From Myxococcales bacterium UBA2376 (GTDB lineage Bacteria; Myxococcota_A; Polyangia; Haliangiales; Haliangiaceae): a stretch of DNA of 14,520 bases. Shown in pieces: positions 3,340-4,014 of this stretch. The position numbers and the translations under genes were made by a program. Numbering within the stretch: position 1 is the first letter of the stretch; every line of letters starts with the position of its first letter. The notes beneath the pieces are model-generated. The model saw only the letters and a list, made by a program, of their open reading frames with translations. It did not search any database and was not told where the DNA came from. Location of the stretch: contig DDTA01000119.1 of NCBI GenBank assembly GCA_002344285.1, positions 1 to 14,520 on the forward strand. Reading direction: 5' to 3'.

Positions 3340-3417
3340 GCCGCCGTAGACCAACTGGCAGGAGTCACTGTTCTCAGAAAGCAGGCAGTGTCGGTTCGAA
3401 CCCGACCGGCGGTACCA
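3340..3417 (+). tRNA. tRNA with leucine anticodon CAG but class-I architecture (5-nt variable loop); A73; CCA encoded
   Basis: Acceptor gccgccg/cggcggt with G1-U72. D-stem gac/gtc with D-loop caactggcagga. Anticodon stem ctgtt/aacag-like (ctgtt/agcag with one G-U) and loop CUCAGAA. T-arm gtcgg-TTCGAAC-ccgac. Only 23 nt separate the D-arm and T-arm, so a long variable arm is impossible. Confidence 0.55.
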
Positions 3418-3429
3418 GTCTCACAACAT

Positions 3430-3499
3430 GCCCCCGACCCGAGGATGGGACGCGACGTGGCGAACGTCGACGGAGCTGGTTCGAGTCCTACCGGTGGCA
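3430..3499 (+). ncRNA. Degenerate paralogue of tRNA-Arg 3081-3150 (anticodon loop UGGCGAA with G33; two mismatches in the T-stem); probable pseudo-tRNA
   Basis: Same acceptor gcccccg/cggtggc and the same D region (ccgaggatgg) as 3081-3150. The anticodon loop has changed from cta to tgg. The T-stem gctgg/cctac is broken. Confidence 0.4.
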
Positions 3500-3507
3500 C
3501 GACACAT

Positions 3508-3580
3508 CTGGGTGTAGCTCAGCAGTGAGAGCGCGCGGTCGGGGACCGCGAGGCCGCTGGTGCGATTCCAGTCACTCAGA
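3508..3580 (+). tRNA. Class-B tRNA-Pro(GGG), loop UCGGGGA (C33, G37); T-loop TGCGATT; D-loop AGCAGTGA
   Basis: Acceptor ctgggtg/cactcag with one G-U. D-stem gctc/gagc. Perfect anticodon stem cgcgg/ccgcg. T-stem gctgg/ccagt. Discriminator A3580. Confidence 0.5.
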
Positions 3581-3609
3581 CCTTGCGTGGAGCTCTCCAC
3601 GCTCCTTCT

Positions 3610-3678
3610 TGCAGCGACCTCTGGGAGGGCGCGCGGCTCATAACCGCGCCGACGAGGGTTCGATTCTCTCCGCTGCAA
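3610..3678 (+). tRNA. tRNA-Met(CAT)-like, elongator type, with a shortened 12-nt D-arm
   Basis: Perfect acceptor tgcagcg/cgctgca. Anticodon stem cgcgg/ccgcg with loop CUCAUAA. T-arm gaggg-TTCGATT-ctctc. Discriminator A3678. Paralogue of 3867-3935. Confidence 0.5.
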
Positions 3679-3693
3679 CGACTCGACACGCTC

Positions 3694-3766
3694 GCCTTCG
3701 TAGACCAACGGAAGAGTCAGCGGTCTCAAACACCGTCGCGTGCGGGTTCGAATCCCGCCGAGGGCA
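3694..3766 (+). tRNA. tRNA with leucine anticodon CAA, class-I architecture (5-nt variable loop); A73
   Basis: Acceptor gccttcg/cgagggc. D-stem gac/gtc with D-loop caacggaaga. Anticodon stem gcggt/accgt with loop CUCAAAC. T-arm gcggg-TTCGAAT-cccgc. The D-arm matches the CAG and GAG paralogues. Confidence 0.55.
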
Positions 3767-3780
3767 CGACACGACTTCTT

Positions 3781-3856
3781 GCGGTGCTCGCCTTCTGGTG
3801 AAGGCAACGGCCTCCAAACCCGTACCAGCAGGGTTCGATCCCCTGGCGCCGTGCCA
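3781..3856 (+). tRNA. tRNA-Trp(CCA), CCA encoded
   Basis: Acceptor gcggtgc/gcgccgt with two G-U pairs. D-arm gcct-TCTGGTGA-aggc. Anticodon stem acgg(c)/(c)ccgt with loop CUCCAAA. T-arm caggg-TTCGATC-ccctg. Discriminator G3853, as expected for Trp. Confidence 0.7.
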
Positions 3857-3866
3857 CTGGTTTCAT

Positions 3867-3938
3867 CGCAGCGACCTCCGGGAGGACGCGGGGCCCATAA
3901 CCCTGCCACGGAGGGTTCGACTCCCTCCGCTGCAACCA
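3867..3938 (+). tRNA. Initiator-like tRNA-fMet(CAT): C1xA72 mismatch, GGG/CCC at 29-31/39-41, loop CCCAUAA (C33), miniature D-arm (cctc-cgg-gagg), CCA encoded
   Basis: Acceptor 5' cgcagcg versus 3' cgctgca, so C3867 is opposite A3934. Anticodon stem cgggg/ccctg. T-arm gaggg-TTCGACT-ccctc is perfect. Discriminator A3935, CCA at 3936-3938. Confidence 0.55.
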
Positions 3939-3939
3939 G

Positions 3940-4014
3940 GCCGCCGTAGACCAACAGGCAGGAGTCACTGTTCTGAGAAGGCAGGTAGTGCCGGTTCGAA
4001 TCCGGCCGGCGGCA
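3940..4014 (+). tRNA. tRNA with leucine anticodon GAG, class-I architecture; A73
   Basis: Perfect acceptor gccgccg/cggcggc. Anticodon stem ctgtt/ggcag with loop CUGAGAA. T-arm gccgg-TTCGAAT-ccggc. Near-duplicate of 3340-3414 apart from anticodon and compensatory changes. Confidence 0.55.

Follow-up and report, generated by a model that had tools for sequence, protein, structure and literature searches.

Type-I Leucine tRNA Genes in a Chromosomal tRNA-Array Island of a Myxobacterium and the Widespread Family to Which They Belong

Introduction

According to a 2023 review, the tRNAs for leucine and serine carry a long variable arm everywhere but in animal mitochondria (PMC9976931). A bacterial tRNALeu of type I, i.e., with a short variable loop, was described in Streptomyces coelicolor by Fan et al. 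2019 (PMC6614811), the only paper that we found on such a molecule, in which it is treated as a Streptomyces rarity. Here, we analyze three tRNA genes that have leucine anticodons and a variable loop of five nucleotides, located at 3340-3414 (CAG), 3694-3766 (CAA), and 3940-4014 (GAG) of a 14,520-nucleotide stretch of DNA (hereafter, the window, meaning this whole stretch) from Myxococcales bacterium UBA2376 (assembly GCA_002344285.1, contig DDTA01000119.1, positions 1 to 14,520). An earlier reading, made from the sequence alone, had assumed that all bacterial tRNALeu are of type II, i.e., long-armed, and had left two branches open: charging by leucyl-tRNA synthetase (LeuRS), or charging by another synthetase with a systematic recoding of CUG, CUC, and UUG. 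The starting assumption is false, as the type-I tRNALeu(CAA) of S. coelicolor (PMC6614811) and the actinobacterial core genes described below demonstrate, and the sense of rarity that this reading conveyed came from it. We show that the three genes are additional bacterial type-I tRNALeu, found in a new host phylum and including the anticodons CAG and GAG.

The S. coelicolor system is the closest one described. This species possesses four long-arm tRNALeu and one type-I tRNALeu(CAA), which is chromosomal and has a five-nucleotide variable loop (PMC6614811). Its single LeuRS charges both types, with a kcat/Km of 6.25 s-1 µM-1 for type I and of 14.2 s-1 µM-1 for type II; U8:A14 and the five-nucleotide loop are required in the type-I tRNA, and its gene could not be deleted (PMC6614811). 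The genes of the window share with it a leucine anticodon (the very same one, CAA, in one case), the five-nucleotide loop, U8:A14, G18G19, A73, and a high-GC host. On the contrary, their host belongs to the Myxococcota, they lie in an array rather than alone, their position 48 is U and not C, and the CAG and GAG genes are short whereas the CUN readers of S. coelicolor are long-armed. The S. coelicolor tRNA is likened to those of the window by these shared features and not by alignment; homology is shown to the core tRNA-Leu(CAA) of other actinobacterial orders.

Two other systems display leucine tRNAs devoid of the long arm. Animal mitochondrial tRNALeu, e.g., human mt-tRNALeu(UUR), are of type I and owe their leucine identity to A73 and A14 (PMC9976931), and the S. 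coelicolor type-I tRNA is a substrate of human mitochondrial LeuRS too (PMC6614811). They differ from the genes of the window in being organellar, A/U-rich, and floppy, with a dedicated LeuRS; the likeness considered here is one of structure. Engineered arm-less or minimal E. coli tRNALeu are leucylated without the long arm provided that A73 and the D/T contacts are kept (PMC9976931); these substrates are laboratory constructs, whereas the natural tRNALeu of E. coli are all long-armed. More precisely, E. coli LeuRS needs A73, A14, A15-U48, G18G19, and A20a, while the arm and the anticodon are dispensable (PMC9976931). The arm is used by the seryl-tRNA synthetase (SerRS) and, in bacteria, by the tyrosyl-tRNA synthetase (TyrRS), but not by LeuRS (PMC9976931).

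The genomic setting of the three genes also has known counterparts. A tRNA array unit is defined as at least 20 tRNA genes at a density of at least 2 per kb (Tran et al. 2016). The units described in Acidithiobacillus, Mycobacterium, and cyanobacteria (PMC4758250, PMC12803027, PMC9569102) are, like the candidate array unit of the window, dense one-strand clusters of 20-35 tRNA genes with an internal HNH gene; they are redundant with the core set, and their patchy distribution and rearranged gene order are also shared with the arrays studied here. The window differs by the addition of genes for Ro60, an RNA ligase, and a protein resembling the vault protein MVP, and by having no GOLLD RNA detectable by Rfam. 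Arm-less leucine tRNAs are unreported in these three array papers. More broadly, our literature search, which did not extend to subscription-only work such as that of the 1980s on T5 tRNA, returned nothing on arm-less tRNA-Leu in phages or arrays.

Three Leucine tRNA Genes with a Five-Nucleotide Variable Loop

ARAGORN and Rfam both recovered the three tRNAs with leucine anticodons that the sequence-only reading had pointed out, the full-length Rfam matches (RF00005) exceeding the gathering score of 29 (Table 1). Direct reading of the sequence bears out the description given of them, namely a five-nucleotide variable loop between the anticodon and T stems, a common D-arm, and A73. The motif common to the three genes is U8 A9 GACC AAC(N)GG(C/A)A(G)GA GUC A26, plus A73. 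In each of them, the D stem is made of three pairs (G10-C25, A11-U24, C12-G23) with C13 facing A22, and the core bases are A14 A15 C16 (N17) G18 G19 (C/A)20 A20a, A26, U48, and A73. The features needed by bacterial type-I tRNALeu (U8, A14, G18G19, A73) are thus present in all three, together with a Leu-type core (13:22 mismatch, A14, A15-U48 Levitt pair, G18G19, A20a, A73). A canonical type-II tRNA has a variable arm of more than 10 nt with a stem; here, there are 5 nt, the genes measure just 73-75 nt up to position 73, and no long-arm fold is possible, as had been claimed. G3.U70, G-1, and a long arm are absent from all three short Leu tRNAs.

The proposal that the genes differ by compensatory changes in the anticodon stem holds in part. 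It is correct for the CAA gene compared with the CAG and GAG genes, but not between these last two, which have an identical 5' anticodon-stem strand and a one-sided change (U31-A39 to U31.G39); the compensatory change that separates them sits in the T stem (U50-A64 to C50-G64). Since single-sequence minimum-free-energy folds are non-discriminating (Z from -0.5 to -1.7, with the cloverleaf as the minimum for the CAA gene only), the evidence for the structure is the covariance model and the covariation presented below. CCA is encoded in the CAG gene only, so that the CAA and GAG genes need CCA addition.

Table 1. Positions of the three short leucine tRNA genes, of the long-arm tRNA genes, and of the other features of the window.
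Feature	Position	Strand	Details
Type-I tRNA-Leu(CAG)	3340..3417	+	ARAGORN 3340-3417; Rfam RF00005 3340-3414, 44.4 bits; long-arm Leu model 49.8 bits; acceptor 3340-3346 / 3407-3413 (G1.U72); U8 A9 3347-3348; D-arm 3349-3366 (GACC AACUGGCAGGA GUC); anticodon 3375-3377; A37 3378; variable loop GCAGU 3385-3389; T-arm 3390-3406; A73 3414; encoded CCA 3415-3417
Type-I tRNA-Leu(CAA)	3694..3766	+	ARAGORN 3694-3767; Rfam RF00005 3694-3766, 52.2 bits; long-arm Leu model 56.2 bits; acceptor 3694-3700 / 3759-3765 (U4.G69); D-arm 3703-3718 (GACC AACGGAAGA GUC); anticodon 3727-3729; variable loop CGCGU 3737-3741; T-arm 3742-3758; A73 3766; no encoded CCA
Type-I tRNA-Leu(GAG)	3940..4014	+	ARAGORN 3940-4015; Rfam RF00005 3940-4014, 50.5 bits; long-arm Leu model 52.0 bits; acceptor 3940-3946 / 4007-4013; D-arm 3949-3966 (GACC AACAGGCAGGA GUC); anticodon 3975-3977; A37 3978; variable loop GUAGU 3985-3989; T-arm 3990-4006; A73 4014; no encoded CCA
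tRNA-Tyr(GUA)	118..204	+	87 nt, long variable arm kept; ARAGORN
tRNA-Ser(CGA)	4750..4843	+	94 nt, long variable arm kept; ARAGORN, Rfam alignment
Second long-arm tRNA-like gene	4846..4930	+	Anticodon loop GUGCUAA (Ser GCU); model 23.2 bits and fold; missed by ARAGORN
tRNA array	118..7010	+	26 ARAGORN tRNAs and about 7 more tRNA-like genes, on one strand
Ro60/TROVE gene	~1030-2628		ORF from 814, 604 aa; interrupts the array; Pfam
HNH endonuclease gene	~4074-4627		ORF from 4028; interrupts the array; Pfam
RNA ligase gene with PHA02142 OB domain	~4960-5960		ORF 4569-5960, 463 aa; interrupts the array; Pfam
Vault-MVP-like gene	7042-9618		3' of the array; 858 aa; Pfam vault-MVP shoulder and repeat domains
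ORF, open reading frame; aa, amino acids.

A Widespread Family Sharing the D-Arm

We scanned IMG/VR contigs and GTDB species genomes with a search pattern for the D-arm, GTAGACCAAC(N)GG(N1-3)GAGTCA, and found it in more than 120 viral contigs and in at least 119 genome loci. A regular expression restricted to the D-loop, AAY(N)GGYAG, was set aside for want of Leu specificity: it matches Gln, Lys, Gly, and Ile tRNAs as well, but few of the long-arm phage tRNA-Leu. The tRNA counts given here concern the matches listed: both sets together, 239 tRNAs carry the pattern, among which only 2 lack a leucine anticodon and 238 are short. In the viral set, 116 of the 117 motif-bearing ARAGORN tRNAs have a leucine anticodon (UAA 76, CAA 22, UAG 10, GAG 4, CAG 3, AAG 1), and all 117 measure 73-78 nt, on contigs ranging from 28% to 63% GC. 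In the genome set, a leucine anticodon is found in all of the 122 tRNAs but one, a decayed copy, and 121 of 122 are short.

The exceptions deserve a description of their own. The viral one, L051 (IMGVR_UViG_3300045125_000034), has an 8-nt anticodon loop (UUUAAAAA) and is called 'Leu|Phe, taaa' by ARAGORN; it is possibly a quadruplet-reading or frameshift-suppressor variant of the arm-less Leu tRNA. The one long member of the family, L224, is a solo chromosomal tRNA-Leu(UAA) of 86 nt in a Thermoleophilia metagenome-assembled genome (MAG; CAWIPO010000009.1). It has exactly the D-arm and T-arm of the family, yet it retains a long variable arm (GGCCCGUCAGGGCGU), and may connect the arm-less family with type-II tRNALeu, either by preserving the ancestral state or by having regained the arm. 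Arrays also hold decayed or shifted arm-less Leu copies, for instance in L232 (a Myxococcales MAG), where a copy called 'Gln ttg' has a broken anticodon stem.

The genome set comprises two groups. The first one consists of 70 loci with a lone tRNA-Leu(CAA), mostly on large Actinomycetota contigs, and the second one of arrays, with 9-35 tRNAs per 8 kb, mostly in Myxococcota MAGs. The solo tRNA-Leu(CAA) is syntenic in 63 of 64 Actinomycetota loci, and the syntenic loci span Streptosporangiaceae, Micromonosporaceae, Nanopelagicales, Nocardioides, and Pseudonocardiales. The solo actinobacterial genes, lying in a syntenic neighbourhood, are therefore vertically inherited core genes.

The positions that lie outside the search pattern tell how well the rest of the molecule is conserved. 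All 158 unique sequences of the family have A73 and U48, and 154 of them have a variable loop of 5 nt. In 80 diverse members, 98.4% of the stem cells are paired, compared with 34-46% when the partner columns are slid, and there are 480 double-change cells, versus 124 +/- 9 in shuffles, none of the 500 shuffles reaching 480. The cloverleaf is under selection, and this covariation suggests that the family is made of functional tRNAs under purifying selection. At a shorter evolutionary distance, the short Leu copies of the window are 97-99% identical to their orthologues in L230, L219, L166, and L142, or differ from them by compensatory pairs, with flanks at 83-93%; indeed, the CAG gene is identical at 76-77 of 78 nt to the copies of L230, L219, and L166, whose surrounding loci are at 83-93%.

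With family members as queries, BLAST also revealed short genes whose sole annotation is 'tRNA-Leu' in GenBank phages: cyanophages, T5-like phages of Escherichia/Salmonella, and phages of Streptomyces, Mycobacterium, Bacillus, Lactobacillus, Vibrio, and Pseudomonas. They resemble the genes of the window by their size (73-77 nt), a 5-nt loop ending in U48, A73, and often G1.U72, and many have an identical D-arm. Moreover, they lie in clusters (including those of Bixzunavirus) beside HNH/homing endonucleases, RNA ligase, and polynucleotide kinase, whereas the locus of the window is chromosomal and has no phage structural genes. Mycobacterium phage Bonray carries a Leu(cag) of 86 nt beside a Leu(gag) of 74 nt and a Leu(caa) of 75 nt, and Streptomyces phage Comrade a Leu(tag) of 84 nt and a Leu(caa) of 75 nt, in a region with HNH endonuclease, RNA ligase, and polynucleotide kinase. 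The T5-like Leu(UAA) differs from the genes of the window by its classic type-II-like D-arm, which suggests that the arm was lost more than once; that of Escherichia phage IrmaTschudi has 77 nt, a GUUUU variable loop, A73, and G1.U72. In the same phage, Leu(UAG) (L248 18684-18764) combines a classic type-II D-arm with a variable region of 9 nt (UCUUCGGGU), the two Ser genes being 90 and 94 nt long. This Leu(UAG) is intermediate between the long-arm and the 5-nt forms, and suggests a stepwise reduction of the arm in phages.

Probable Leucine Identity of the Short tRNAs and Meaning of Their Codons

As a surrogate isotype model, we built a covariance model from 20 long-arm phage tRNA-Leu only and scored every position of the window with it. 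The three short genes rank first (CAA), second (GAG), and third (CAG; Table 1), and are followed by tRNA-Phe (46.0 bits) and tRNA-Gln (39.5 bits); the other type-I tRNAs score at most 36, the long-arm Ser 25.9, and the long-arm Tyr 19.2. The bases A73, A14, A15-U48, G18G19, and A20a are kept both in the family and in the 20 aligned long-arm phage tRNA-Leu. The combination of A14, A15, U48, and A73 is near-universal in leucine tRNAs (240 of 244 of type I, 19 of 21 of type II); it is a necessary signature of leucine and not a diagnostic one.

The anticodons of the family are a further argument. UUR and CUN anticodons have no base in common except A35, and a single tRNA body associated with all six leucine anticodons, and with essentially no others, is what is expected if the synthetase ignores the anticodon. 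The distribution of the long arm follows the same logic of synthetase usage. In 32 genomic array loci, the Leu genes are short in 83 of 83 cases, the Ser genes long in 29 of 30, and the Tyr genes long in 12 of 12; in viral loci, Ser genes are long in 38 of 39 cases and Tyr genes in 12 of 14.

We then asked what the codons mean in this genome, by aligning the Ro60 protein of the window with human RO60 (PDB 9nen) and Deinococcus Rsr (2nvo), the overall identity being 46%. The recoding of CUG, CUC, and UUG envisaged earlier is not borne out, as these codons face leucine or other hydrophobic residues in the two reference proteins. CTC codons (49 aligned pairs) face Leu in 59% of the pairs and one of L/I/V/M/F in 78%, CTG codons (42 pairs) in 64% and 90%, and TTG codons (4 pairs) in 3/4 for both. 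Both references have Leu at 29 columns; there, the codon of the window is CTG in 11, CTC in 9, and TTG in 1, and the remaining 8 encode I/V/M/C. CTC, CTG, and TTG therefore mean leucine in this genome. In five large ORFs of the window, we counted CTC 103, CTG 76, CTT 10, TTG 7, CTA 5, and TTA 0, so that 196 of the 201 Leu codons are covered by the three anticodons.

Weighing the Explanations

The explanation that we favor, with a probability of roughly 85%, is that the three genes encode functional arm-less (type-I) Leu tRNAs, charged with leucine by the host LeuRS and reading CUG, UUG, and CUC/CUU. The mechanism would be the following. Bacterial LeuRS would ignore the anticodon and the long arm, and would rely on the acceptor end (A73/CCA), U8:A14, the D/T elbow, the Levitt pair, and a variable region of at least 5 nt. 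A tRNA-Leu could lose its arm and swap among the six Leu anticodons while keeping its identity; tRNA-Ser and bacterial tRNA-Tyr could not lose theirs, because their synthetases use it. The D-arm GUAGACC-AAC(N)GG(YA)G(G)A-GUCA marks the three genes as members of a single, widely distributed lineage, which is a core, vertically inherited tRNA-Leu(CAA) in many Actinomycetota and is mobile, with six anticodons, in phages and array islands. In the window, they would supply the leucine tRNAs of a full spare set fitted to high-GC codon usage. The island that houses this set, on a Haliangiaceae/Kofleriaceae chromosome, also holds the Ro60, HNH, RNA-ligase, and vault-like genes. Of the two branches of the sequence-only reading, charging by LeuRS is the one that gains support, from the family anticodons, the conserved core, the model rank, and the S. 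coelicolor precedent, and recoding the one that does not. A leucine function is very probable; charging by LeuRS in this particular host and a back-up or stress role of the array would go with it.

Several observations weigh against this explanation. The margin of the three genes over tRNA-Phe in the long-arm Leu model is merely 4-10 bits, and A35 perhaps contributes to it. In the same mobile pools, 20-55% of the tRNAs for Ala, Ile, Lys, Gln, and Glu display the A14+A15+U48+A73 signature as well. The CUN-reading tRNALeu of E. coli carry G37 (m1G37); both CUN readers of the window have A37 and not G37, so that m1G37 cannot be made, which could affect decoding. Finally, E. coli LeuRS failed to charge the S. 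coelicolor type-I tRNA, the ability to do so mapping to the leucine-specific domain (PMC6614811); hence, acceptance by every bacterial LeuRS cannot be assumed and may be lineage-dependent.

Concerning position 37, A37 is found in 49 of the 56 unique family members with an NAG anticodon, and in about 7 of 11 long-arm phage Leu(NAG) too. We considered A37 as a sign of descent from UUR-type arm-less tRNAs and rejected this idea, because of these long-arm phage tRNAs. A37 is thus a trait of mobile tRNAs in general and not of arm loss.

That another synthetase charges the three tRNAs, with CUG, CUC, and UUG systematically or partly recoded, we regard as highly improbable. The missing long arm is the sole structural point in its favor, to which one may add that some Ala, Ile, Lys, and Val tRNAs of the mobile pool display the same A73 / A15-U48 signature. 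However, the Leu codons of the Ro60 gene align with Leu or hydrophobic residues well above background and fill 21 of the 29 invariant-Leu columns. In addition, the three tRNAs have neither G3.U70 (alanyl-tRNA synthetase, AlaRS), nor a long arm (SerRS), nor G-1 (histidyl-tRNA synthetase, HisRS), and anticodon-reading synthetases would refuse Leu anticodons according to established identity rules (PMC9976931). The same body bears six Leu anticodons and essentially nothing else, and the S. coelicolor type-I tRNA is leucylated (PMC6614811). Hardly more credible is the idea that the genes are decaying pseudogenes of long-arm tRNA-Leu whose arm was deleted: arrays do hold decayed copies, such as that of L232, and non-canonical neighbours, but every stem is intact in the three genes, their orthologues (L230, L219, L166, L142) are 97-99% identical or differ by compensatory pairs within flanking DNA at 83-93%, and the family is conserved across phyla with 98% pairing.

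We also judge unlikely, to a lesser degree, that the tRNAs are transcribed but mainly non-translational, serving as decoys or resistant substitutes against toxins or nucleases that target long-arm tRNAs, or as ligands of Ro60 and of the RNA-repair enzymes, with poor or absent charging. The array is indeed set among genes for Ro60, HNH, RNA ligase, and a vault-like protein; several neighbouring tRNA-like genes lack U33; the failure of E. coli LeuRS on the S. coelicolor type-I tRNA goes in the same direction; and tRNA arrays have been discussed as putative anti-defence units (PMC12803027), as phage tRNAs have been for the evasion of anticodon nucleases (PMC10264068, PMC13056530). Nevertheless, conservation extends to the cloverleaf, the anticodon loop (C32 U33 ... 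A37 A38), A73, and the T-loop, with extensive covariation; the anticodons fit the dominant Leu codons of the host; the array would cover all 20 amino acids when its non-canonical members are counted; and neither the window nor its vicinity encodes a nuclease specific for long-arm tRNAs. A benefit in counter-defence and normal Leu decoding are, moreover, mutually compatible. Along this line, arm loss could be an adaptive hallmark of mobile tRNA sets, one or a few lineages having spread horizontally (in phages of at least six bacterial phyla and in array islands), switching among six anticodons and evading toxins or nucleases for long-arm tRNAs while remaining accepted by LeuRS; we find this doubtful. 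If it were true, the tRNALeu(CAA) found among actinobacterial core genes would either have been domesticated from this lineage or have given rise to it.

The tRNA Array and Its Chromosomal Island

The three genes are part of a one-strand array (Table 1), with 26-33 genes in 118-7010. Their density is about 4-5 per kb if non-coding DNA alone is considered, and about 3.8-4.8 per kb, above the 2 per kb of the array-unit definition, if the span is taken as a whole with its three embedded protein genes. As had been noted before, the long tRNAs of the window are Tyr and Ser only, and there is no long-arm Leu gene within the 14.5 kb. Besides the second long-arm gene of Table 1, five tRNA-like genes missed by ARAGORN were found by Rfam or by the covariance model, at 753-823, 3181-3251, 3254-3327, 3430-3499, and 6049-6120. 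Their anticodon loops are, respectively, CCUCCAA, CCGAUUA (GAU, Ile?), CCGUGAA (GUG, His?), UGGCGAA (GCG, Arg?; with G33), and CCCGGGC. Several of the tRNA-like genes missed by ARAGORN lack the near-universal U33, a peculiarity that might be related to resistance to anticodon nucleases. Counting these non-canonical genes, the array would cover all 20 amino acids.

Another unusual member is the tRNA with anticodon CCA (Trp) at 3781-3856, which has a six-pair D stem and a lengthened acceptor helix, and which scores higher with the tRNA-Sec model (39.9 bits, below gathering) than with the standard tRNA one. Weak matches to the Sec model were also obtained for Thr(CGU) at 900-971, Asp at 6448-6521, and Ser at 4750-4839. 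Two of the protein-coding ORFs overlap tRNA genes. The RNA-ligase ORF is over-extended at its 5' end, as it covers tRNA-Ser(CGA) and the 4846-4930 gene, the ligase of L245/L246 having 334 aa; the Ro60 ORF starting at 814 overlaps a tRNA-Thr at 901-972, its relatives having 531-545 aa.

A phage origin of the locus was considered and dropped, as the close relatives lie on chromosomal contigs with housekeeping neighbours. Region 3000-7100 has no megablast match in GenBank phages, and its protein matches, in huge uncultured phages, are distant, at 41-44% identity. On the other hand, the window is 93% identical to a contig of a Kofleriaceae MAG (L230) and about 84% identical to contigs of Myxococcales MAGs (L219, L142). 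The nearest Ro60 protein is from Kofleriaceae/Haliangiaceae (96%), and, in DNA sequence, the Ro60 gene shares 72-75% identity with that of about fifteen further loci in Myxococcota, which likewise hold tRNA arrays. On a 162-kb Haliangiaceae contig, the neighbours of the same module encode globins, HSP70, Ser/Thr kinases, an ABC transporter, and an SNF2 helicase, and phage structural genes are absent. The locus is therefore not a phage genome but an island of tRNA-array and RNA-repair genes in a myxobacterial chromosome. The three short Leu genes recur on the 162-kb contig, and the array layout is also found in L245/L246.

The order of the island (814-9618; L245, L246) is Ro60/TROVE, tRNA array, HNH, RNA ligase (PHA02142 OB and RNA_ligase domains), tRNA array, vault-MVP-like, YCII, ABC transporter, and SNF2 helicase. 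The island is conserved in Haliangiaceae/Kofleriaceae and in other Myxococcota, and the presence of a bacterial homologue of the major vault protein (MVP) beside Ro60 and a tRNA array is unusual. Rfam detected neither Y RNA nor GOLLD RNA at the locus. Within the arrays, the tRNA gene order is shuffled among L230, L219, L142, and L166, and orthologous tRNAs were compared one by one; a differing order between relatives that are 84-93% identical indicates rapid rearrangement.

Conclusions

For the window itself, a false alarm is removed, as there is no evidence of a change in the genetic code. The pattern that it displays is not specific to it and has been under-described. Several Actinomycetota orders possess the arm-less form as a syntenic core gene, and this form is the usual one of tRNA-Leu, with six anticodons, in the phage and array sets of many phyla, in which Ser and Tyr tRNAs keep their arms. 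This raises the question of which LeuRS accept arm-less tRNALeu, all the more so as T5-like coliphages carry such a tRNA even though the E. coli enzyme reportedly does not charge that of Streptomyces. It also raises the question of whether mobile elements draw an advantage from the loss of the arm. The leucine, serine, and tyrosine tRNAs of these mobile sets offer, in this way, a natural illustration of the rules by which synthetases recognize their tRNAs.

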